Source of the DNA: a virus
Virus record (IMG/VR): IMGVR_UViG_3300020383_000006
Span: 32,001-96,000 of that record
Length of the DNA stretch: 64,000 bases
Reading direction: 5' to 3' (one strand)
Part shown: piece by piece, positions 19,048 to 44,746 of the stretch
How the letters are laid out: every line of letters begins with the position of its first letter
How positions within the stretch are numbered: the first letter of the stretch is position 1
Position numbers and translations under genes: made by a program
Notes under the pieces: model-generated
Told to the model about the DNA's origin: nothing
What the model saw: the letters and a program-made list of their open reading frames with translations, nothing else
The model's database searches: none

Positions 19048-21390
19048 ATGAAACTTTTTGACGAAAAAAGAACCCTTCTTTCCAACGTAGAAAATAAAAG
19101 TAAAATGCGGATTGAAGCATCATCCAAGATGTTTGAAATCCTCAGTTCTAAAATCTACAAATATAAACCAGCTGCCATAGTACGTGAACTTTCTTCAAAC
19201 TGTTATGATTCGCATGTTGAAGCTGGTATTCCAGAAAAACCTTTCACTGTAGTATTACCAAGTAAAATGCACAGTTACGTAGAATTTATTGACTATGGTA
19301 CTGGTATGTCACATGAAGATGTTGTAAACATTTTCACGGTTTATGGTGTTTCCACTAAGAATAATTCAAACAGTGCAATTGGTGCATTTGGTATGGGCGC
19401 TAAAACGCCTTTTGCATACGCCAAATCATTTATTGTTGAAACCGTTAAAGATGGTATCAAACGTTTCTATAATCTATATCTTGATGAATCAAGTGAGCCT
19501 TCTTACTCATTACAAGCCGAAGTAGAAACTGATGAAGGGAATGGAACAAAAATTAAAATTCCAGTTCGCGAAGAACATTACCACAAATTTGTTTCTGAAG
19601 CCGAATTTATTCTTTCATTTTTTGAAGTTCGTCCTGAAATAAACTATGCAGGGAATTTTGAATTTGTGGTTTCTGAAGAAAAAGTTAAAGAATTTTACGA
19701 ACAAGGGTTCATGCGGTTAAATATTGAACGAAGTGAATCTGAATTGTATAACTCATACCGTGATATCTACGCAGTTATGGGACCAGTTTGCTACCCCATT
19801 GATTTTTCTGATATCGGTATTAGTTCATACGAAATTTCTAGAAAACTTCCTGGACTTAAAAATGATTTGTTTAGCGGTAATGATACCATTTTTATTCAGT
19901 TTGAAATAGGTGAATTAGAAGTTAATGCTTCACGTGAAGCACTTTCTATTGACCAAGATTCAAATTCCAAAACTGTAGAAAATATCAGTAATAAAGTGAA
20001 AGAAATTAATGATCGGTTATTAAAAGAATTTGAAGATCATATTTCAAATGCTTCTAACCGAGTAGAAATGTTATCTAACCTTTATGAATATAATAAGTCA
20101 ATTTTTGAATACCGTGGAAATTGGAAATTTGAAATTGCTTTACAAAGTGTTTATTATAAGGAAAAAACGCTTCAGTCCCATTTAAAAGGAACGCTTTTGG
20201 GTCGCAATATCAATGTATATTCTTGTGAAGTACCTAAATCAAGAAAACGCTTTAATTCTAGAAATAACTTGTTACCAAGGTTTTTGTTTGATAATTACGG
20301 TAACAAAAGAAACTTTTTCGTTATTTTTGAAGATGCAGAAACTCATTTAACGACTGAATCATGGATGGGTTTTTATGCTAACGAAATTGAATATAACCTA
20401 AGAAACCAAGATTTATTGGTAAAGTTTAAAGGTAAAAAATCTGATTTAAAACTAGAGCGTTTGGCTAAATTGTTACCAGTTTTTGAACCCGAAGATTTTA
20501 ACGTTATTACTTTGTCAGAAATCCTTTCTGAACGGAAACGTATCATGCGGGAACGTCGGGTTTCTAGCGATGTAGATTCTATTACAAATAGACCCAAAAC
20601 TGAATTTAAGGCAAAAGGGTTAATTGCTAGAAATGAACCTTATACTAATTATTACCATAAAGGCAAGAAAGATATTAAAATAAAAATTCGTGAATCTAGA
20701 AATCAGGTTCGTAAGCCAGAATCAGAAAAAAGTATTTTGTATTTTTATCTGGAAAATGACTCTGGTGTATTACCTAAAAACCTTGGTATCAAATTGATTT
20801 CATTTTACCACAAATTCTTCACAAACACTTCTTACAAAGAATTTGTGTTAGTTTATAAAAACAAAATGAACGCAAAGCGAATTGAAGCTTCAGGTATCCA
20901 AAGTTTTAATGGTTTAATTAAAAAGATTGTTTCTGATAGAAAATTTTTAAGGTTCTTAAAAATATATGATATTTTAAGGAATTCAGAAAATTATAAAATA
21001 GATATTTTTGAATATAAAATTGGAACTCATCGAGAAAATGAATTAAAAGAATTCATTAAGAAAGAAGTTCTTGAGGAAGGCTTGGTTAGAATCTATTACA
21101 AATATGATTTTTTAGAAAATGAACTTGTTAATAAACTGGGTGAAAATGTTGTTGAACTGTTGTTCCAATTAAGGGAAAACTTCTATGATATTTCTACAAT
21201 TCTTGCTGTTTCACCTTTATTTAATACCGTTTACTTTGATAACCTTTTAGGCGAAATTAGTGACCCTAAAACTGAAAATAATAATAACATCGAGGATGAT
21301 TTTCCTATGTTAAAATATGTTCCTCAACACAATTTAACCTTTCAAGACAAGGTTGATGTTTCGAAATATATTCATTCGTACTTTGAATAG
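19048..21390 (+). CDS. rIIA: RIIA lysis-inhibition protein (GHKL ATPase N-domain)
   Basis: KMFEILSSKIY..AIVRELSSNCYDSH, DYGTGMS, IGAFGMGAKTPF. Confidence 0.92.
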   Translation: MKLFDEKRTLLSNVENKSKMRIEASSKMFEILSSKIYKYKPAAIVRELSSNCYDSHVEAGIPEKPFTVVLPSKMHSYVEFIDYGTGMSHEDVVNIFTVYGVSTKNNSNSAIGAFGMGAKTPFAYAKSFIVETVKDGIKRFYNLYLDESSEPSYSLQAEVETDEGNGTKIKIPVREEHYHKFVSEAEFILSFFEVRPEINYAGNFEFVVSEEKVKEFYEQGFMRLNIERSESELYNSYRDIYAVMGPVCYPIDFSDIGISSYEISRKLPGLKNDLFSGNDTIFIQFEIGELEVNASREALSIDQDSNSKTVENISNKVKEINDRLLKEFEDHISNASNRVEMLSNLYEYNKSIFEYRGNWKFEIALQSVYYKEKTLQSHLKGTLLGRNINVYSCEVPKSRKRFNSRNNLLPRFLFDNYGNKRNFFVIFEDAETHLTTESWMGFYANEIEYNLRNQDLLVKFKGKKSDLKLERLAKLLPVFEPEDFNVITLSEILSERKRIMRERRVSSDVDSITNRPKTEFKAKGLIARNEPYTNYYHKGKKDIKIKIRESRNQVRKPESEKSILYFYLENDSGVLPKNLGIKLISFYHKFFTNTSYKEFVLVYKNKMNAKRIEASGIQSFNGLIKKIVSDRKFLRFLKIYDILRNSENYKIDIFEYKIGTHRENELKEFIKKEVLEEGLVRIYYKYDFLENELVNKLGENVVELLFQLRENFYDISTILAVSPLFNTVYFDNLLGEISDPKTENNNNIEDDFPMLKYVPQHNLTFQDKVDVSKYIHSYFE

Positions 21391-21481: not shown

Positions 21482-22468
21482 ATGGCAGTTCAGTGTTTGA
21501 ACCAAATTGAAAAACGTGCAATTTACGATTCATTTAAAGATGGTGCTTCTAAGCGTTCACTCGCTAAAAAGTATGAAGTATCTGATAAAACGATCAAACG
21601 CGTGATTGATGAAATTGAATCTGAAAGTGAAACTACGGTTGTAGGTACAAATGAACCTGAACCACAAGAACAAACTGAAACGGTCGAAGAAAAAACCGTT
21701 GATTCAAGTTTAGAAGGCGTTCATTTCAACTTTACTTTGTGTTCTGATTCAATTTCAATTACTCATATGCTAAACGGTGAAATGGTCTCTCATAACATCG
21801 ATGAGAACCATGAAAAGTTTGAATGGGCATACGGGTTGATTATGGAATCTCGCGGCTCCCAGGAGTCTTTGCGGGAGGTTGTGGAGGAAGTTTCTACTAA
21901 AGTTAAACTGGAAACATTGACATTCGGGCGTTTAAAAGTAGAACCTGAAATTGGGGAAATGACTTATACCTTTGATGACGGGTATGTTCACCAATTCCAC
22001 GGTCGTTTATTGGAACGGGTTGTAGATTCAGTTGTAAGCGGTAATGAATCCAAACTTAACAGCCTTGTAAACTTTAGTAAACTGTTGATGGAAAACCCAT
22101 CTAATCGATCGGTTAATGAACTTTATAACTTCCTTGACCATAACTGTATTCAAATTGATGAAGAAGGTATGGTTATTGCATTTAAGAAAGTCCGTGAAAA
22201 CTTTACTGACGTTCACAGCGGAAAATTTGATAACTCTATCGGTAGTAAACCGCGAGTTAACCGAAACCAAGTAGATGAAGACTCACAAGTAACTTGTTCA
22301 TACGGGTTACATGTTTGCGCCAGTTCATACCTTAGTTCATTCGGTGGCACTAAAACAGTTAAAGTTAAAGTTCATCCGAAAGACTTTGTTGCTATCCCAA
22401 GGGATTATAAAAACGCAAAGGCTCGTGTTTGTGGTTATGAAGTTATTGATGAAGTTACTAACTGGTAA
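21482..22468 (+). CDS. rIIB: RIIB protein
   Basis: N-terminal HTH; LMENPS..ELYNFL; TCSYGLHVC; KARVCGYEV. Confidence 0.92.
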   Translation: MAVQCLNQIEKRAIYDSFKDGASKRSLAKKYEVSDKTIKRVIDEIESESETTVVGTNEPEPQEQTETVEEKTVDSSLEGVHFNFTLCSDSISITHMLNGEMVSHNIDENHEKFEWAYGLIMESRGSQESLREVVEEVSTKVKLETLTFGRLKVEPEIGEMTYTFDDGYVHQFHGRLLERVVDSVVSGNESKLNSLVNFSKLLMENPSNRSVNELYNFLDHNCIQIDEEGMVIAFKKVRENFTDVHSGKFDNSIGSKPRVNRNQVDEDSQVTCSYGLHVCASSYLSSFGGTKTVKVKVHPKDFVAIPRDYKNAKARVCGYEVIDEVTNW

Positions 22469-22527: not shown

Positions 22528-22755
22528 ATGAAACAAGAAAGAGATATTTTAAGTGAAATTGATAATATTATTGAGACCGAACGGAAACAAGGTAATATTG
22601 TAGACCAAACTGAAGTTGGTGATATTATCAAACAATTAGAAAAATTAAGTTATAACGAATTAAAGTTAATTGAAGTTCGTTTAATTAACCTTAAAAACAG
22701 TAAGAAGCCTGACGTTAAAAAAGGTCAAGATGAACCACCAACGTTTAGTTTATAA
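22528..22755 (+). CDS. hypothetical protein
   Basis: ORF track; GAGG RBS. Confidence 0.55.
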   Translation: MKQERDILSEIDNIIETERKQGNIVDQTEVGDIIKQLEKLSYNELKLIEVRLINLKNSKKPDVKKGQDEPPTFSL

Positions 22756-22783
22756 TTATTTTTAAATTATTTTCAAAAAAAGG

Positions 22784-22812
22784 TTTACTTTTATTTTTAA
22801 CTGATTTAATAT
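22784..22812 (+). promoter_or_regulatory. early-type promoter of the tRNA operon
   Basis: GTTTACT-N17-TAATAT with AT-rich upstream element. Confidence 0.6.
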
Positions 22813-22897
22813 GATCTTCACGGTTTAGGGAATTTTAAATTTCAAATTACCTAAATAATAATAGATTCAAAATTTTTAGGATTAACGGAATTCAATT

Positions 22898-23035
22898 ATG
22901 TTATCATTACGATTAGAAAAAGCGACAAAAGGGTATCAGCATAAATCTGCTGAGACGGGTTCGTTTTATTCTAAATCTGATAGTAATAATATTGAACCGA
23001 AAAACGGGCTTTTTGAAGTAGGGGTTTGGGATTAA
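22898..23035 (+). CDS. putative 45-aa leader peptide of the tRNA operon attenuator
   Basis: Not in track; GGA RBS; MLSLRLEKATKGYQHKSAETGSFYSKSDSNNIEPKNGLFEVGVWD*; 3' codons overlap the antiterminator arm. Confidence 0.65.
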   Translation: MLSLRLEKATKGYQHKSAETGSFYSKSDSNNIEPKNGLFEVGVWD

Positions 23036-23095
23036 ACTCCAAAAGATAAAAATCTTACTTCAAAAAGCCCAGCCTAAAAAGCTGGGTTTTTTATT
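23006..23095 (+). promoter_or_regulatory. attenuator: antiterminator overlapping an intrinsic terminator
   Basis: 23006-23020 pairs perfectly (15 bp) with 23056-23070; 23067-23073 alternatively pairs with 23081-23087 followed by a U-tract. Confidence 0.75.
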
Positions 23096-23167
23096 ACATA
23101 TAGAAAATTTGAATTACAATAAAGAAATTTAATTTACGAATCAAGTTTCCTTATTATAGTTTAAAAA

Positions 23168-23180
23168 TGTTCTTTAACAA
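23168..23180 (+). promoter_or_regulatory. rrn-type boxA antitermination site
   Basis: TGTTCTTTAACAA vs consensus TGCTCTTTAACA, 17 nt upstream of the first tRNA. Confidence 0.65.
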
Positions 23181-23197
23181 ATTGGGTTCTAGACAGT

Positions 23198-23273
23198 GGT
23201 GGTAGTGGCAGAGTGGTTATGCCCTCGGTTGTGATCCGAGATCACGTGGGTTCAAATCCCATCTACCACCCCA
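23198..23273 (+). tRNA. tRNA-His(GTG)
   Basis: Cloverleaf with G-1/C73; CTCGG-TTGTGAT-CCGAG; CCA. Confidence 0.95.
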
Positions 23274-23286
23274 AAGTCTTACTTGT

Positions 23287-23359
23287 ACTCCCATCGTCTA
23301 GTGGTCTAGGACACTTGCCTTTCACGCAGGGAACAGGGGTTCAAATCCCCTTGGGAGTA
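23287..23359 (+). tRNA. tRNA-Glu(TTC), no encoded CCA, extended acceptor helix
   Basis: Cloverleaf CTTGC-CTTTCAC-GCAGG; ends ...GAGTA CAA; flanks pair for 13 more bp. Confidence 0.9.
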
Positions 23360-23375
23360 CAAGTAAGATTTAAAA

Positions 23376-23453
23376 GGCGGAGTGGACTGGAGTTGGTTCC
23401 AGCTCAGGCTCATAACCTGAATGACGTAGGTTCGAATCCTACCTCCGCAACCA
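23376..23453 (+). tRNA. tRNA-Met(CAT), initiator-like
   Basis: 1:72 mismatch (G/A); TCAGG-CTCATAA-CCTGA; CCA. Confidence 0.88.
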
Positions 23454-23459
23454 GTTTGT

Positions 23460-23534
23460 AGTGGTATAGCTCAGCGGTAGAGCAAACTCTTGATAAGGGT
23501 TAGGTCGCTGGTTCAAATCCAGCTACCACTACCA
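23460..23534 (+). tRNA. tRNA-Ile(GAT)
   Basis: Cloverleaf; TTGATAA loop; CCA. Confidence 0.95.
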
Positions 23535-23543
23535 AATTTAAAA

Positions 23544-23629
23544 GGACGTGCGGCAAAGTTGGTGAGTTGCGGCAGACTGTAAATCTGTTACCTCAGGTTA
23601 AGAAGGTTCGAATCCTTCCACGTCCACCA
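23544..23629 (+). tRNA. tRNA-Tyr(GTA)
   Basis: Cloverleaf with variable arm; CTGTAAA loop; CCA. Confidence 0.95.
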
Positions 23630-23637
23630 GTTTCGAA

Positions 23638-23767
23638 AGCGCCACACTAGCGTGATTAGACTTCATCATCTACGTGATGTATGGTGCATACCAAGATAAA
23701 GTAACCTGAAGTAGTGTTCCGGTGAAATTGAAAGGAAGATAAGGTTCAAGTCCTTAACTGATGCTGA
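23638..23767 (+). ncRNA. tRNA-like ncRNA with a perfect T-arm but no cloverleaf
   Basis: TAAGG-TTCAAGT-CCTTA; long ACACT..ACTTCA/TGAAGT.AGTGT stem; no CCA. Confidence 0.55.
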
Positions 23768-23778
23768 AGAATTTTAAA

Positions 23779-23857
23779 CTCCGTGTAATATCAGTCTGGT
23801 CAGATGGCTCGATTTGGAATCGAGAGGTCGTAGGTTCAAATCCTACCACGGAGACCA
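23779..23857 (+). tRNA. tRNA-Pro(TGG)
   Basis: CTCGA-TTTGGAA-TCGAG; CCA. Confidence 0.93.
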
Positions 23858-23976
23858 ATTTTGGTTATATGCTTATAACTAATAGTTATTATACGCAAGC
23901 CATAATTTTTAGTATAATATTTGCGTTGGTTGGGAAGATCAACGTTAATTAACTAAAATTGAAGGAAATCTATATT

Positions 23977-24204
23977 ATGGCTATTAAACCATTATCTGAA
24001 AAACCAGTTGCTTCAAAACAAGAAATTGATTTATCTGGTCCAGATGGAAACGCTTTTGTTTTGTTTGGTTATGCTAAAAATTATGCAAAACAATTAGGTT
24101 TAGACGGTAATAAAATCGTTGAAGAAATGAAAAGCGGTGACTACGAAAATTTGTTAAATGTTTTTGATAGTTATTTCGGTGAGTTTGTAACTCTTTATCG
24201 CTAA
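23977..24204 (+). CDS. conserved small phage hypothetical protein
   Basis: IDLSGPDGNAF...MKSGDYENLL; probable start MAIKP. Confidence 0.7.
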   Translation: MAIKPLSEKPVASKQEIDLSGPDGNAFVLFGYAKNYAKQLGLDGNKIVEEMKSGDYENLLNVFDSYFGEFVTLYR

Positions 24205-24244
24205 TAGAATTTTGTGAGCCGAATATTCGGCTCACTTTTTTACT

Positions 24245-24324
24245 GGAGTATGGGACTGCTAGGTGTGGTCGCTGGCCTGTCACGTCAGATGTTCAGAGGG
24301 GTTCGAATCCCCTATACTCCGCCA
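24245..24324 (+). tRNA. tRNA-Asp(GTC)
   Basis: CTGTCAC loop; T-arm; GCCA. Confidence 0.93.
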
Positions 24325-24329
24325 TTTTT

Positions 24330-24404
24330 GGGGAATTAGCTCAGCGGTAGAGCGACTGCCTGTTAAGCAGTTGGCCATTGGTTCGAATCCAATATTCCCC
24401 GCCA
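24330..24404 (+). tRNA. tRNA-Asn(GTT)
   Basis: ACTGC-CTGTTAA-GCAGT; GCCA. Confidence 0.95.
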
Positions 24405-24409
24405 ATTTT

Positions 24410-24487
24410 GGGTCGGTAGCCAAGTCAGGTGAAGGCAATGCACTTTTAATGCATGGATCGAAGGTTCAAATCCTTCTCGACCCACCA
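24410..24487 (+). tRNA. tRNA-Lys(TTT)
   Basis: ATGCA-CTTTTAA-TGCAT; ACCA. Confidence 0.95.
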
Positions 24488-24492
24488 ATTTT

Positions 24493-24564
24493 GGGGCTGG
24501 TTCTTGGTGACGGAAGATGGTTTGCAACCATTTGAGGAGGGTTCGATTCCCTCTAGCTCCACCA
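24493..24564 (+). tRNA. tRNA-Ala(TGC) with aberrant D-arm
   Basis: G3.U70 in GGGGCTG/TAGCTCC; TTTGCAA loop; G at position 8; 72 nt. Confidence 0.85.
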
Positions 24565-24570
24565 AATACA

Positions 24571-24678
24571 GATTATTTTGTACTGGCGCAATACATGAGT
24601 TCTTTCCTAGGTTTTTTAAAAAGGCTCCGGCTTCCGCTGGCTAATAGGTTGAATGCGGGGCGTCAGTACAAAATAATT
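24571..24678 (+). ncRNA. candidate ~108-nt structured RNA
   Basis: 19-bp terminal stem GATTATTTTGTACTGGCGC/GCGTCAGTACAAAATAATT (G.U pairs on + strand) enclosing two hairpins. Confidence 0.6.
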
Positions 24679-24684
24679 TTAATT

Positions 24685-24760
24685 GCCGACATAGCTCAAC
24701 TGGGAGAGCAGCGCCTTTGTAACGCGCATGTTGGGAGTTCGAATCTCTCTGTCGGTACCA
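24685..24760 (+). tRNA. tRNA-Thr(TGT)
   Basis: Cloverleaf; C.C mismatch at the 31:39 pair; CCA. Confidence 0.92.
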
Positions 24761-24802
24761 ATTTATTGTTAGGTATTTAATTATGTTTGGTGGTAAGAAT
24801 AT

Positions 24803-24879
24803 AGGGGATTAGCCAAGCGGTCGAAGGCAACGGACTTTGATTCCGTTATTCAAGGGTTCGAATCCCTTATCCCCTCCCA
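24803..24879 (+). tRNA. tRNA-Gln(TTG)
   Basis: ACGGA-CTTTGAT-TCCGT; CCA. Confidence 0.93.
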
Positions 24880-24899
24880 ATTTTGAAAGGAGATATATT

Positions 24900-25163
24900 A
24901 TGGTTCGGTTTTATCCAAGGGAACTAGAAGTTTGGAAATCTAAGTTTGATTTTTCTGGAGATACAACCTTAGTTAATAGAACACTAAAACCATATAAAGA
25001 ATTTTATGATAGAGCTGAATTGATAAAATTTTTGAGGGAGAATGGTCCCAAATTAGATAATTCTAAATACCCTTTAGAGTTTAATTCAATAAATCACCAT
25101 TACTATGGTTATTGCCATGTCGTAAAACAAATCGGTGTTCTCGGTTGGATGATTGAGAAATAG
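24900..25163 (+). CDS. hypothetical protein
   Basis: AAGGAG RBS before MVRFYPRE; track start 24837 lies inside tRNA-Gln. Confidence 0.65.
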   Translation: MVRFYPRELEVWKSKFDFSGDTTLVNRTLKPYKEFYDRAELIKFLRENGPKLDNSKYPLEFNSINHHYYGYCHVVKQIGVLGWMIEK

Positions 25164-25181
25164 GGTAAAGTTTTAATTAAT

Positions 25182-25255
25182 GCGTGTGTAAACTCAGTTG
25201 GTAGAGTTCCGTCCTTCCAAGTCGGTGGTCGCAGGTTCGAATCCTGTCACACGCT
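25182..25255 (+). tRNA. tRNA-Gly(TCC), no encoded CCA
   Basis: CCGTC-CTTCCAA-GTCGG (one U.U pair); ends T-CAA. Confidence 0.9.
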
Positions 25256-25263
25256 CAATTTAA

Positions 25264-25350
25264 GGAAAGTTGGCAGAGCGGTCTATTGCACTCGACTGCT
25301 AATCGAGAGTCCTTCGGGGCACGTGGGTTCGAATCCCACACTTTCCGCCA
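25264..25350 (+). tRNA. tRNA-Ser(GCT)
   Basis: CTGCTAA loop; variable arm; GCCA. Confidence 0.95.
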
Positions 25351-25354
25351 ATTC

Positions 25355-25449
25355 GGAAGGTCGCAAGGCTGGCGTGCTTATCGGTCTTGAAAACCGTGAT
25401 GCTGAGTGAGTAGCTCGGCGTATGGGTTCGATCCCCATACCTTCCTCCA
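25355..25449 (+). tRNA. tRNA-Ser(TGA)
   Basis: CTTGAAA loop; long variable arm; TCCA. Confidence 0.9.
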
Positions 25450-25471
25450 ATTTTATTAGTAAGGGTTTGTT

Positions 25472-26698
25472 ATGTATAATTTGATTAAAGGTGAAAATTT
25501 TGATATTAAAGTTTGGAACAAAGATGTTCCAATGGAATCAGGTGTATTTGACCAAGTAAGAAACCTTGCTAAATTACAAGGCGTTCAGGCTGTCTCATTA
25601 ATGCCAGATGCTCATGTTGGCAAAGGGTCAACCGTAGGGTCAGTCATCGTAACTAAAAACGTTATAATTCCTGCTACAGTAGGTGTTGACATCGGTTGCG
25701 GTATGAATGCAATCCGGTTATCTTTAAAAGCTTCTGATTTACCTGAATCACTTACTCAAGTAAGGAACGAAGTAGAAAAAATGGTTCCAGTTGGTTTTGA
25801 CCAACATTCTGACCAACGTACTGGAATTAGTGCTCACAGAAATACTCGTTCAATGCTTAATCGTTATATGAGCAAATTAGAACTTGGGTTTAATGAAATT
25901 ACTAACAAACACGAAGATATTAGCAAAATGTCTAAAAACTTACCACAAAAAGTTCTTCAACAAATCGGGACTTTGGGTGGTGGTAACCATTTCATTGAAT
26001 TATGTATTGATGAAAACCAAGATGTTTGGGTAATGCTTCATTCAGGTTCTCGTGGTGTAGGTAACGCAATTGGTCGTTACTTTATTGAAAAAGCTAAAGA
26101 AGAAATTTTAAAATCAGGGTTACAAGTACCAGAAAAAGATTTATCTTATTTATCCCATGGTACAGATTTGTATCGTGATTATATTGATTCTGTTGGTTGG
26201 GCGCAAGAGTACGCTAAAACTAACCGCAAAGCAATGATGGAATTGGTTCTTACTGCTTTGAAAAGATATTTACCGAATTTCATTGTTACGAAAGAAGCGA
26301 TTAATTGTCACCACAACTATATTTCTAAAGAAGTTCATATGTCTGAAGAAGTATATGTTACCCGTAAAGGTGCAGTTTCAGCGCAAGCTGGTGAATTAGG
26401 AATTATTCCTGGTTCTATGGGTGCTAAATCGTATATCGTTCGTGGTAAAGGTAACGTTGATTCATTTTGTTCTTGTTCACATGGCGCTGGTCGTGTAATG
26501 TCAAGAAGTAAAGCTAAGAAAATGATTTCTATTGAGGATCATTTAAAAGCAACTGATGGCGTTGATTGTCGTAAAGATAAAGGTGTATTAGATGAATCAC
26601 CTTTAGCGTATAAAGATATTGACGCAGTAATGAGTTCACAAGATGACTTGGTTGAGGTAGTTCATACTCTTAAACAAGTTATGTGTGTAAAAGGTTAA
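25472..26698 (+). CDS. rtcB: RNA 2',3'-cyclic phosphate/5'-OH ligase RtcB
   Basis: MPDAHVGKG, VGVDIGCG, GTLGGGNHFIE, HSGSRG, HHNY, SHGAGR and C-terminal VKG motifs. Confidence 0.97.
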   Translation: MYNLIKGENFDIKVWNKDVPMESGVFDQVRNLAKLQGVQAVSLMPDAHVGKGSTVGSVIVTKNVIIPATVGVDIGCGMNAIRLSLKASDLPESLTQVRNEVEKMVPVGFDQHSDQRTGISAHRNTRSMLNRYMSKLELGFNEITNKHEDISKMSKNLPQKVLQQIGTLGGGNHFIELCIDENQDVWVMLHSGSRGVGNAIGRYFIEKAKEEILKSGLQVPEKDLSYLSHGTDLYRDYIDSVGWAQEYAKTNRKAMMELVLTALKRYLPNFIVTKEAINCHHNYISKEVHMSEEVYVTRKGAVSAQAGELGIIPGSMGAKSYIVRGKGNVDSFCSCSHGAGRVMSRSKAKKMISIEDHLKATDGVDCRKDKGVLDESPLAYKDIDAVMSSQDDLVEVVHTLKQVMCVKG

Positions 26699-26700
26699 TT

Positions 26701-26776
26701 GCATGGTTGGCTGAGCGTTTTAGGCGTCGGATTGCAAATCCGAATTACGGGGGTTAGAATCCCTCACCATGTTCCA
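26701..26776 (+). tRNA. tRNA-Cys(GCA)
   Basis: TCGGA-TTGCAAA-TCCGA; T-loop TTAGAAT variant; TCCA. Confidence 0.9.
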
Positions 26777-26796
26777 ACTAATTAAGGTTGTTTGTT

Positions 26797-27075
26797 ATGA
26801 GTGAATTTAAAGTTGAAGAAATGGTTTGTGGTTGTGGTCGGCAAGGTAGATATATTGACCCGTCCAATGGAAAGTCTTCTTGTAATAAAAATAAACGTTG
26901 CCCAACGTACGAGCAACTAGAAAAAACAAACAAGGAACTGTACCATGACATCCTTATGTTGTTGGAAGCTTCAAATGATGTAACAACATTCAGAGAATCT
27001 ACTAAACCTTACAACAAAGCTAATTTTGTGATTGAAGAATTAACTTCAAAATATGATTTTAATAAAAGGTTTTAA
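26797..27075 (+). CDS. Cys-rich hypothetical protein
   Basis: CGCGRQGRY..SCNKNKRCP. Confidence 0.6.
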   Translation: MSEFKVEEMVCGCGRQGRYIDPSNGKSSCNKNKRCPTYEQLEKTNKELYHDILMLLEASNDVTTFRESTKPYNKANFVIEELTSKYDFNKRF

Positions 27076-27076
27076 T

Positions 27077-27152
27077 GGGGACTTAGCTCAGCAGGTAGAG
27101 CACTAGATTGAAGATCTGGGTGTCACTGGTTCAATTCCAGTAGTCCTCACCA
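27077..27152 (+). tRNA. tRNA-Phe(GAA)
   Basis: TTGAAGA loop; ACCA. Confidence 0.95.
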
Positions 27153-27158
27153 AATAAT

Positions 27159-27242
27159 GCGGGTATGATGGAATGGAAGACATAGGAGACTTAAAATTTC
27201 TGGGCGAAAGCCGTGTGGGTTCGAATCCCACTACCCGTACCA
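27159..27242 (+). tRNA. tRNA-Leu(TAA)
   Basis: CTTAAAA loop; GGC-GAAA-GCC variable arm; ACCA. Confidence 0.95.
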
Positions 27243-27258
27243 TTTAGAGGTTTATATT

Positions 27259-27462
27259 ATGATTAAACATTTTGAAAGTAAAACAAGCCATCATAATGAC
27301 TTTACTTACCCTGAAATCGGTAGTAAAGTAATTCACAAAGTTTACGGTAAAGTTCAAATTTTGTCAGTAGATAAACAAGAACTTGAAGCTACTGTTAGAC
27401 AAATTGATGGCGACCCAACGCTATTTTTTAGAATTGGGTTGGAAGATTTAGAAAGTTTTTAA
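27259..27462 (+). CDS. small SH3-like hypothetical protein
   Basis: GAGG RBS; IGSKVIHKVYGKVQIL. Confidence 0.6.
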   Translation: MIKHFESKTSHHNDFTYPEIGSKVIHKVYGKVQILSVDKQELEATVRQIDGDPTLFFRIGLEDLESF

Positions 27463-30107: not shown

Positions 30108-30136
30108 TTTACTTTTATTCAATAAAGTAGTAAGAT
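30108..30136 (+). promoter_or_regulatory. early-type promoter
   Basis: TTTACT-N17-TAAGAT. Confidence 0.6.
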
Positions 30137-42555: not shown

Positions 42556-43515
42556 ATGTCTCTAGCTGAAAAATTTGCTAAAAACTCAAAATTGAAAGGT
42601 AGTGGAACGTTTTCTAAAACATTAGAAAAACCAGTGAAACTATATGACACTGGCGTACCAGCATTAAACCTTGCTTATAGCGGTGACCTATTTGGTGGAA
42701 CTAAATCAGGCGTTACTTGTATAGCAGGTAAATCAAAATCATTTAAAACGTTATTTGGGTTGATTGCTTGTAAAGCGTATATGGATGAACACCCTGACGC
42801 ATATATGTTATTTTATGATTCAGAAGGCGGTGCGTCGAAAGAATACTATGAACAAATTGGTATTGATACCGACCGAGTTATTTATCTACCTATCATGAAT
42901 ATTGAGGAACTAAAATTTGATTTAGTTCCTAAACTTGAAGAAATCAAAAAAGAACATGATGAAGCTAAAAAAGAAGAAGATAAACCAAGGTTCATCGTAT
43001 TCTGTGACTCAATCGGAAACTTAGCATCAATTAAAGAAGTAACTGATGCAATGAATGACAATTCAGCTACTGATATGGGTATCAGAGCTAAAACACTAAA
43101 AGCATTATTCCGTATCATGACACCTTATTTCAAGCGTTGTGAAATACAAATGATTGCTATTATGCACACGTATGATGAAATGGCTGCTATGGGTGCACCA
43201 AAACAAATTATGAGCGGTGGTTGTGTTACTGAAGGAACCCGTATTATGCTTGAAAACGGGGATTTTGTAGAAATACAAAATATCCAAGAAGGTGACATGG
43301 TAATGTCAAAAGAAGGTCCTAGAAAAGTAGACCATATTTGGGATCCTGAAACTCTTGAAGAAGGAAACCCAGAATGCTTGCGTTTAACTTTCGATGATGG
43401 ATATCAAGTAGAATGTTCCGAGAAACATAGATTCTTAGTTAAAAATGAAAACGGTGATGAAGAATGGGTTATGGCTAAGGATTTAACTGAAGGAATGGAC
43501 TTAATTTCTATTTAA
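42556..43515 (+). CDS. uvsX: UvsX recombinase N-extein (222 aa) + split intein N-fragment (97 aa)
   Basis: GKSKSFKT P-loop; ...IMSGG|CVTEGTRI (Cys1 at 43222); block B ECSEKHRF; ends WVMAKDLTEGMDLISI. Confidence 0.93.
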   Translation: MSLAEKFAKNSKLKGSGTFSKTLEKPVKLYDTGVPALNLAYSGDLFGGTKSGVTCIAGKSKSFKTLFGLIACKAYMDEHPDAYMLFYDSEGGASKEYYEQIGIDTDRVIYLPIMNIEELKFDLVPKLEEIKKEHDEAKKEEDKPRFIVFCDSIGNLASIKEVTDAMNDNSATDMGIRAKTLKALFRIMTPYFKRCEIQMIAIMHTYDEMAAMGAPKQIMSGGCVTEGTRIMLENGDFVEIQNIQEGDMVMSKEGPRKVDHIWDPETLEEGNPECLRLTFDDGYQVECSEKHRFLVKNENGDEEWVMAKDLTEGMDLISI

Positions 43516-43522
43516 TTTGAAT

Positions 43523-43583
43523 TTTAAACCTCTAGGATAATAAATACTTTATGCGAAGAGTACAAAAGTCCTAGAGGTTTAAA
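43523..43583 (+). promoter_or_regulatory. RBS-sequestering hairpin with a late-type promoter in its loop
   Basis: 15-bp inverted repeat 43523-43537/43569-43583 covering GAGG and the A of ATG; TAATAAATA at 43538-43546. Confidence 0.7.
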
Positions 43584-44746
43584 TGAATATAGTTTATAAA
43601 ATAACTTTTTTAGATAGAAAAGAAAATAACATATACCCATATATCTATATAGGTTCTAAATCAAATTGTAATTTTGTTGATGGTAAAATTATAGATAGAA
43701 ACGGTAATAGTTATTATGGAAGTTCAACTTGGCCAAATTATTATGAAATAGTAAAAAAGGGTAATCTGAAAATTGAATTATTATTTCATTCAGAAAATTA
43801 TAATGAATGTTTAATGAAAGAAAAAGAATTACATTTAAAAGAAGATGTTGTAGCGAACCCTGAATATTTTAATAAGACAATAGCTTCTATAAGTAATTAC
43901 TCTGACCCTAGTTATGCAACTTATAAACATACATTATATGGTAAAATAGTTAGGTTGCCTAGAAACCATCCGTTAGTCGAAAACGGTACTTATGTTGGGG
44001 TTACAAAAGGGGATACAGTTAAACATTCAGGCAATGGTTCTAGGTTTGGAATGTTTAATTCTTTTTATGGAAAAACGCATAGTGAACAAACTAAACAAAA
44101 ATTAAGAGAACATAATTTAGGCAAAGTTCATTCTGAAGAATCAAGAAGAAAAATGTCTAAATCTAGGAAAGGTAAAAAGAAGACTAAAGAACACAAAGAA
44201 AAGATAGGTAGGAAAGGTATGGTTAATTTTGTTAACGTAAAAACAAAAGAAACCATTAGGGTGTATAGGGAAGAATTTGAGTTGAGGGATGACAAAAAAG
44301 ATTGGTTGACCCAAGCAAAATATAATTCTATCTATAACAAACCTGAAGAAATTATTTGTGAGTATTGTGGAATGAGCTTATCTCCTGGTAATTATTCTCG
44401 GTTTCATGGTAAAAATTGTTCTAAAGTAAAAGTCAGAGAATATAACCCATTCAAAAAATTACTGGAAGGTAAAGGGAAAAACAAAACTATTGAGGAGGTT
44501 CTTTATTTCTTTGATGAGATTGTAAATTTTTTAAAAGAAAATAAAAAGCCTGAAAATATGAGTAGTAAAAGGTATTCATTAGAAGTTTTAATACCTTTTA
44601 CAAAAAATAAATTCGGTGATGTAGAACCCTTTTACGCTGTGATAAAAAGAGTATATAATTCATTTCGAGAAGGGAAAATTGGTGAAGAGACATTTTCATA
44701 TTTCTATAAATGGAAACAAAAGGTAGATTTTAATGCTATTAAGTAA
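43583..44746 (+). mobile_element. free-standing GIY-YIG homing endonuclease with NUMOD3 repeats
   Basis: IVYKIT...YIGSK; FYGKTHSEQTKQKL; GKVHSEESRRKMS; CEYCG..RFHGKNC. Confidence 0.88.

Follow-up and report, generated by a model that had tools for sequence, protein, structure and literature searches.

A probable conditional terminator, conserved at the RNA level, ahead of the tRNA and rtcB genes of an uncultured marine T4-like phage, and its possible operation by leader translation

The DNA analysed here (the window, 64,000 nt) comprises bases 32001-96000 of a 145.5-kb virus record of the IMG/VR database (IMGVR_UViG_3300020383_000006), which is approximately 90% complete and has a G+C content of 34%. 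Near-identical contigs from Tara Oceans and other marine metagenomes, together with a T4-like rIIB, point to an uncultured marine T4-like phage as its source. In this study, we report the analysis of a transcript leader placed immediately before the tRNA array of this phage. An earlier interpretation of the same DNA, made without database searches (hereafter the sequence-only reading), had proposed that this leader is an attenuator which switches on the tRNA genes and the RNA ligase gene rtcB when translation fails. Reading of the sequence located its promoter (TTTACT-17-TAATAT), its 45-codon open reading frame (ORF, 22898-23035) and its terminator before the tRNA array exactly where it had placed them. 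The features of the leader and of the genes that follow are:

22775-22812 (+): early sigma70-type promoter, with an A-run, a -35 box TTTACT (22784-22789), a 17-nt spacer and a -10 box TAATAT (22807-22812)
22823-22856 (+): 5' hairpin of the leader transcript (GUUUAGG...CCUAAAU), -8.3 kcal/mol, palindromic TTTAGG...CCTAAA
22886-23000 (+): hairpin A, long and imperfect, over the start region and codons 1-34, -31.5 kcal/mol, z = -4.7
22887-22900 (+): weak Shine-Dalgarno sequence GGA, 8-nt spacing, and ATG
22898-23035 (+): leader ORF, 45 codons plus TAA (ATG at 22898, TAA at 23033-23035), MLSLRLEKATKGYQHKSAETGSFYSKSDSNNIEPKNGLFEVGVWD
23006-23070 (+): Y-shaped antiterminator, -29.6 kcal/mol
23006-23020 with 23056-23070 (+): antiterminator helix P1, 15 bp, its 5' arm being codons 37-41
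23021-23040 (+): antiterminator hairpin P2, 8 bp, holding the stop codon
23044-23055 (+): antiterminator hairpin P3, 4 bp
23062-23092 (+): intrinsic terminator, GCCCAGC (23067-23073), 7-nt loop, GCTGGGT (23081-23087), T6 to 23092
23199 (+): start of tRNA-His, first gene of the array
23199-27242 (+): downstream block of 18 tRNA genes, small ORFs and rtcB
25472-26698 (+): rtcB, within the tRNA block

Read in reverse complement, 23056-23070 (TACTTCAAAAAGCCC) is identical to 23006-23020 (GGGCTTTTTGAAGTA), which confirms the perfect 15-nt complementarity between codons 37-41 and the region of the terminator that had been described. The four bases GCCC at 23067-23070 are common to P1 and to the 5' arm of the terminator, and therefore the antiterminator and the terminator exclude each other. 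This mutual exclusion, also part of the sequence-only reading, was reproduced by the folding model, in which the free RNA formed the antiterminator with a probability of 0.998 and the terminator with a probability of approximately zero. The terminator (23067-23092) has a 7-bp G+C-rich stem followed by U6 and lies 106 nt 5' of tRNA-His; its core stem (23067-23087) amounts to -11.2 kcal/mol, or -15.4 kcal/mol when extended by A-U pairs, and the hairpin at 23062-23092 is terminator-like on the minus strand as well. When the growing transcript was folded, no stable upstream partner was available to 23006-23020 until 23056 had been transcribed. Before the 3' arm is made, this segment has weak A-U pairing of 7 bp only, which is not kept in the diverged relative L168 described below. 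Given that the antiterminator is favoured in free RNA and has no upstream competitor, the default outcome is therefore read-through. An upstream 1:2 hairpin, of the kind that acts as anti-antiterminator or pause site, was not found in the leader folds, and the prediction that a leader without translation is read through holds in the model.

Perfect inverted repeats were counted over the 145.5-kb genome, allowing a loop of up to 80 nt, and compared with 20 first-order Markov simulations. Those with arms of at least 12 nt numbered 16, against 2.0 in the simulations, and those with arms of at least 15 nt numbered three, against none, P1 being one of the three. A 109-nt fold gave z = -5.1 and the whole leader (279 nt) z = -9.2, and the segment 22991-23110 ranked second among 4847 sliding windows of 120 nt for structure. 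Terminator-like hairpins are 14 in the genome and 12 of them form in their context, with a median pair probability of approximately 1. The leader terminator (-9.2 kcal/mol in this comparison of 14 hairpins) reached a minimum pair probability of 0.03 and a median of 0.18 in context; it is the sole strong one out-competed by upstream RNA, a weak hairpin at 87426 (-6.3) being low too. The inverted repeat, the fold and the features described are not due to chance. The leader is present in the genome as a single copy without repeats, and a repeated mobile element was rejected for this reason. In Rfam 15, the best matches to 22700-23200 scored at most 26 bits against thresholds of 41-100 or more, tRNAs alone passing the gathering score in the window, and a known RNA family was likewise rejected.

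Two other long repeats were observed. The gene of tRNA-Glu lies within a 17-nt perfect inverted repeat (23277-23293 and 23352-23368, plus strand) that prolongs its acceptor stem, in the most structured 120-nt window of the genome. The third perfect repeat of this class (43523-43537 and 43569-43583) has 15-nt arms and a 31-nt loop, and the structure of windows 43481-43630 ranks with the strongest of the genome.

Conservation was assessed mainly with L168, a Logan contig of 1274 nt (SRR29340318) and the only diverged relative, which holds rIIB, a gene of 75 amino acids (aa) and the leader up to approximately 23049. The genes upstream of the leader in the window are:

19048-21390 (+): rIIA
21482-22468 (+): rIIB, 38% identity to rIIB of cultured T4-like phages, Pfam PF26926
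22528-22755 (+): 75-aa ORF, between rIIB and the leader promoter

Nucleotide identity between L168 and the window was 78.5% in rIIB, 76% in the 75-aa gene (78% at the amino acid level), 46% in the spacer between these two genes, 83% in the promoter region, 89.6% in ORF codons 1-32 and 100% (42/42) in codons 33-45 plus the stop codon. This identical segment (22994-23035), which contains the 5' arm of P1 and most of P2, extends to approximately 23043, and 42 identities out of 42 have a p of 1.7e-5 given the 76-78% found in the neighbouring genes. The leader frame has no indels in L168, while the flanking non-coding DNA has them, and it differs by 4 amino acid changes and 4 synonymous codons. Its synonymous divergence (pS) is 0.145, in comparison with 0.53 and 0.57 for the two upstream genes (binomial p 4e-6 to 5e-5), and the ten substitutions in the ORF are distributed 2/4/4 over codon positions 1, 2 and 3. 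Because synonymous divergence is low and the substitutions are not concentrated at third positions, the dominant constraint on the leader acts on the RNA. This substitution pattern speaks against a conventional small protein, and fits either a leader in which translation matters more than the peptide or a non-coding RNA. Hairpin A is maintained in L168 despite 14 substitutions (-29.4 kcal/mol, z = -3.9, versus -31.5 kcal/mol in the window), a retention of energy with p = 0.05 with respect to randomly placed substitutions; a clean compensatory base pair between both sequences was not seen in it. The 5' hairpin (22823-22856) shows one change in approximately 35 nt, the following 19 nt being heavily diverged, and it may serve to stabilise the RNA, or as an operator or binding site.

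Among near-identical strains (L002-L004 and L169-L177), variation was restricted to three ORF positions and an A-run, none of them in the switch, and the terminator was invariant. One of these contigs, L173 (5x coverage), has three differences at window-equivalent positions 23036, 23057 and 23067, each of which breaks an antiterminator pair; all fall in its last 76 nt and are probably due to faulty assembly. Three conserved segments of the leader were searched for as exact patterns in IMG/VR and JGI metagenomes, without any match, and no cultured phage was similar to the leader region. We consider it very probable, and well supported by these data, that a conserved conditional terminator separates a strong early promoter from the tRNA/rtcB block.

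The leader promoter, with a predicted transcription start at approximately 22819-22820, belongs to a type recurrent in this phage, since TTTAC[AT]-17-TAnnnT occurs at 17 intergenic sites of the genome, including the leader promoter and those before rIIA and rIIB. It agrees at 11 of 12 positions with the early consensus TTTACW-N17-TAYWAT of T4/PST, which is the promoter of the cassettes named PeSL (PMC4122927). With respect to L168, its -35 box and spacer are unchanged and the -10 box is TATGAT. On the plus strand between the promoter at 22784 and position 27301, neither a further canonical early promoter nor a late TATAAATA nor a Mot-type site was found. Isolated tRNA genes elsewhere in the genome have a canonical early promoter immediately 5', and therefore a leader of 415 nt before the array is not the default layout. 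Both observations favour dependence of the array on the leader promoter. A candidate second promoter was detected beyond the terminator:

23133-23160 (+): TTTACG-16-TATAGT, 3' of the terminator, 9/12 matches

Sites of this class are no commoner than in shuffled sequence, and this one deviates from the TTTACT-17 type of the phage.

The case for translation of the leader ORF seems to come mainly from its codon composition. Its codon-usage score, 0.378 bits per codon, is at the 56th percentile of real coding pieces, higher than that of every one of 2131 off-frame open pieces and, in comparison with 671 open windows of non-coding DNA, within the top 2.5%. Further signs in favour are the absence of indels from the frame in L168, a Shine-Dalgarno sequence that L168 retains in an improved form, the even spread of substitutions over codon positions, and an initiation region that is approximately 50% unpaired as long as hairpin A is incomplete. 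The effect of a ribosome was modelled by masking a 27-nt footprint at successive P-site positions and refolding the RNA. With the P-site at codons 5-30 the antiterminator was intact, and at codons 33-42 the probability of the terminator was 0.97-1.0, so that the threshold near codon 32 given by the sequence-only reading was recovered. Its further claim, that a ribosome at the end of the leader causes termination, stood in the model for codons 33-42; at the stop codon the outcome hinges on a steric parameter. With the P-site at codon 45, when the A site holds the stop codon, P1 still has 12 bp free, and the terminator wins if at least 25 nt of free RNA are needed to bridge the ribosome. The modelled geometry is compatible with control by the ribosome, in a form less clean than that of trp.

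The best single explanation of these data, which we put forward tentatively and rate at somewhat less than an even chance, is a ribosome-operated attenuator between the early promoter and the tRNA/rtcB block, ON by default and with translation lowering transcription. It presumes that the ORF is translated, that the position of the ribosome decides the fold in vivo, and that the fold sets the levels of the tRNAs and RtcB. The polymerase would start near 22820 and produce a structured leader carrying the 45-codon ORF. If codons 37-41 were uncovered, their 15-bp pairing with 23056-23070 would form, and the resulting Y-shaped antiterminator would use up the GCCC of the terminator 5' arm, transcription continuing into tRNA-His and beyond. 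If a ribosome were in the last third of the ORF as the polymerase reached the U-tract, the 5' arm of the antiterminator would be masked, the terminator would form and the transcript would end near 23092; a ribosome still parked at the stop codon would probably mask this arm likewise. The tRNA set would then be transcribed less when the leader is translated efficiently, and more when its translation is slow, stalled or absent, the net effect being feedback on decoding capacity.

A number of observations weigh against such an attenuator, and some of them concern the translation of the ORF. Its Shine-Dalgarno match is of 3 nt, when 65 of 96 long ORFs of the phage have at least 4 nt (in L168 the leader has AGGA with 7-nt spacing). 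Its start codon is inside hairpin A, the mean unpaired probability of the initiation region being approximately 0.5 early in transcription and approximately 0.3 once this hairpin is complete. The peptide is an orphan: searches with a word index, with HMMER against 1.84 billion representatives and in PHROGs gave no homologue outside the 90% cluster to which it belongs. The dN/dS (0.38) does not reach significance (p 0.11), and chance alone would have left the frame open in L168 with an expectation of 53%. The leader has no run of codons for one amino acid. The sequence-only reading had counted correctly 19 amino acid types and 29 codon types (including ATG), with three TTA, CGA and all four NCG codons, and had taken this broad sampling as an argument for a sensor. 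This argument does not hold, as the diversity of codons, amino acids and rare codons is within the ordinary range (p 0.24, 0.16 and 0.10, respectively): at least 18 amino acid types were present in 16% of 44-codon pieces taken from ordinary genes, at least 28 codon types in 24% and at least 12 rare codons in 10%. In addition, it is in the stems of hairpin A, P1 and P2 that the rare G/C-rich codons of the leader are found, and this location explains them more simply than codon sampling does. As for other identities of the peptide, two weak HMMER matches were rejected as repeat proteins, and a membrane toxin was rejected given that the peptide is hydrophilic.

The remaining points concern the mechanism and its distribution. 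The 5' arm of P1 lies 13-27 nt upstream of the stop codon and not, as in trp, under the leading edge of the terminating ribosome, and with a ribosome at the stop codon the antiterminator still forms if the steric requirement is 20 nt or less. The contig L168 ends before the 3' arm (23056-23070) and the terminator, and covers the 5' arm of P1 only. The site at 23133-23160, if it is a promoter, would express the array independently of the leader, and the array of Vibrio phage nt-1 is preceded by a plain terminator (probability 1.0) and then a promoter, which is an ordinary layout. Finally, the geometry of ORF, antiterminator and terminator was absent from the more distant relatives examined. No out-competed terminator was found before the arrays of the rIIB-linked loci L102, L113, L115, L124, L141 and L109 (approximately 40% rIIB identity), of RtcB-linked loci from unrelated phages, of four T4-like records (G001-G003 and G005) or of nt-1.

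Other explanations must be weighed against the ribosome-operated attenuator. The locus might be an ordinary early-gene cassette of PeSL type, in which the promoter at 22784 serves a small early protein gene with its own terminator, the array is transcribed from 23133-23160 and the long hairpin is the 3' structure of a small mRNA. The genomes of T4-like phages abound in cassettes that combine a promoter with a small orphan ORF and a stem-loop (PMC4122927, PMC2839356), the codon usage of the leader ORF is coding-like, and the promoter-like site 3' of the terminator reproduces the order of elements seen in nt-1. However, a terminator that closes a cassette would not face a dedicated 15-bp competitor, and this one never forms in free RNA. 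The synonymous divergence, 4-fold under that of the neighbours and without concentration at third positions, indicates constraint on RNA and not on protein; the site at 23133 departs from the promoter type of the phage and its class is equally frequent in shuffles; and 14 terminator-like hairpins in the whole genome do not make a cassette-wide PeSL pattern. Membership of the PeSL cassettes was rejected, as a stem-loop and promoter motif repeated at many ORF borders was not found, and we regard the cassette explanation as unlikely. It is similarly improbable, in our opinion, that the leader is a constitutive structure, with an antiterminator that always wins, a silent plus-strand terminator and an untranslated ORF. 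Its structures would then process or stabilise the tRNA precursor, for example as a site for a double-strand RNase or as a block to an exonuclease, or would stop minus-strand transcription. The probability of 0.998 for the antiterminator in free RNA, the exceptional overall structure (z = -9.2), the conservation at RNA level and the weak ribosome-binding site all agree with this, as does the terminator-like character of the hairpin on the minus strand, whose transcription reaches the partner arm only after the hairpin; moreover, RNase III reportedly acts 5' of the first tRNA in the T4 cluster. Nevertheless, every gene between 19048 and 33867 is a plus-strand gene, so that a minus-strand stop is not needed, and cleavage of P1 would strip the stop codon from a coding-looking frame. 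In addition, a good plus-strand hairpin with U6, kept together with a partner whose overlap with it is precisely the G+C-rich arm, is what marks out conditional terminators under the PASIFIC criteria (PMC5314783).

A real switch with another operator is somewhat more doubtful still. In this case the 5' hairpin and hairpin A would bind a ligand (an RNA-binding protein of the phage or of its host, a small RNA, or a metabolite), and this ligand would mask 23006-23020 or 23056-23066 and so favour the terminator. The 5' hairpin and the core of hairpin A are conserved beyond the needs of an attenuator, translation of the ORF is supported indirectly, and protein-operated attenuators of such shape exist (TRAP, L20). 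Against this, the leader matched no Rfam family, no repeated protein-binding motif was seen, and complementarity of at least 12 nt to either P1 arm was found nowhere else in the genome; given that the masked arm is part of a frame that is retained and coding-like, the ribosome is the simplest operator. A T-box or another sensor based on tRNA pairing was rejected, with neither a Stem I nor anything resembling a specifier in the leader, and no complementarity between it and the tRNAs of the phage.

The ribosome-operated attenuator resembles the trpL, hisL, pheL, thrL and ilvL leaders in the order of promoter, short ORF and terminator before the regulated genes, and in its antiterminator, some bases of which also belong to the terminator 5' arm and which becomes masked when a ribosome nears the end of the ORF. 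It differs from them in lacking a run of codons for one amino acid; in lacking the 1:2 anti-antiterminator or pause hairpin, so that an untranslated leader is read through instead of terminating; in that the masked arm is 5' of the stop codon and not just beyond it; and in that the genes under control encode tRNAs and an RNA ligase and belong to a phage. The Trp and Thr leader models of Rfam gave chance-level scores on the phage leader. In pyrBI, the 44-codon pyrL leader is translated by a ribosome that blocks the terminator hairpin directly, and translation thus leads to read-through. The phage leader is of similar length and the outcome would also be set by how closely the ribosome trails the polymerase, but the sign of control is opposite. 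The antibiotic-responsive attenuators revealed by Term-seq (vmlR, lmo0919, bmrCD and msrD) are OFF by default, require a ribosome stalled at a particular place, are mostly from Gram-positive bacteria and control resistance factors. In them, the leader ORF has no amino acid specificity and senses in a general way that translation is slow or stalled, read-through of the terminator then rising (PMC9226507). The phage leader would share this behaviour, and differs from them in that its default fold is ON and translation would turn it down. The PeSL cassettes of T4-like phages have in common with this locus the promoter TTTACW-N17-TAYWAT, a small orphan ORF and a hairpin with A-run, G+C stem and T-run followed by a promoter-like site (PMC4122927); however, PeSL stem-loops have not been described with a dedicated competing helix, and the motif is not repeated through this phage genome. 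Literature searches retrieved ribosome-mediated attenuators for amino acid and resistance genes, and none for cellular or viral tRNA operons or for phage tRNA arrays.

Phage tRNA arrays are now viewed as a counter to tRNA-targeting host defences and to codon mismatch. Even on the most modest reading, which matters for the annotation of such genomes, the complete tRNA set and RtcB of a T4-like phage are placed behind a conserved conditional terminator. If the attenuator is real, the switch would be read by the ribosome, which consumes its product, in a direct feedback loop on decoding capacity; leader-peptide attenuation would extend to non-coding RNA operons and to viruses, and the leader would be a compact, portable sensor of translation stress. 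A more specific possibility, which we consider improbable as a whole, is a general sensor of translation health. Depletion or cleavage of host tRNAs by anticodon nucleases, toxins or starvation, or codon mismatch to the A+T-rich phage, would make ribosomes lag, the antiterminator would form, replacement tRNAs and the RtcB repair ligase would be made, and recovery would close the terminator. The link of the leader to tRNA damage is attractive, and it is one that we infer; if true, it would be an undescribed viral autoregulation of the tRNA supply.

With regard to the array itself, 22 tRNA genes are on the plus strand from 23199 on. Two further elements could affect their transcription:

23168-23180 (+): boxA-like TGTTCTTTAACAA, 12/13 match to TGCTCTTTAACAA, between the switch and tRNA-His
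24214-24241 (+): intrinsic terminator within the array, 9-bp stem (24214-24235), -15.2 kcal/mol, T6, ending 10 nt before tRNA-Asp

The sequence TGCTCTTTAACAA is the boxA of the E. coli rrn operons, and TGTTCTTTAACAA is the sole site in the window with one mismatch or less. The internal terminator, 3' of an ORF of 75-81 aa (PHROG 1933), has no competing structure (probability approximately 1), and nine tRNAs and rtcB are placed behind it. A strong and unopposed terminator being present inside the array, the polymerase must therefore somehow pass terminators in it. In this respect, the locus is like rrn-type antitermination, with a 12/13 boxA match 5' of the first tRNA that would suit a long untranslated operon with an internal terminator at 24214; unlike it, the boxA-like site is here a separate element 3' of the switch, with putative binding of Nus factors only. 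In nt-1, a 12-mer, GTTAAAGAACAA (L184:1350-1361), is found just 5' of the first tRNA in the opposite orientation relative to the array, and holds the reverse complement of the 11-nt core TGTTCTTTAAC of the boxA-like motif. The boxA reading is therefore weakened, since the core is reversed before that array. A minus-strand promoter-like sequence, TTGTTA-16-TATAAT (23180-23153, 10/12), overlaps the boxA-like motif and faces the minus-strand side of the terminator; it could give rise to an antisense RNA of approximately 70 nt.

Some minor observations were also made in and around the array. A perfect inverted repeat of 14 nt with a 78-nt loop (24572-24585 and 24664-24677, plus strand), between tRNA-Ala and tRNA-Thr, is probably another structured RNA within the array. 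The segment 27464-27543 (plus strand) scored 37.8 bits with the Rfam tRNA model and was not called as a tRNA by ARAGORN. The segment 30012-30107 (plus strand), 3' of tRNA-Val and 5' of an early promoter at 30108, is G+C-rich and folds strongly (z approximately -3.5), with no tRNA or Rfam call. Lastly, several early promoters (18974 and, on the minus strand, 2757 in the window; -29177 and 105686 in the genome) share an initial transcribed motif, taccTTGTTGA or gggTTGTTGA, located right 3' of the -10 box.

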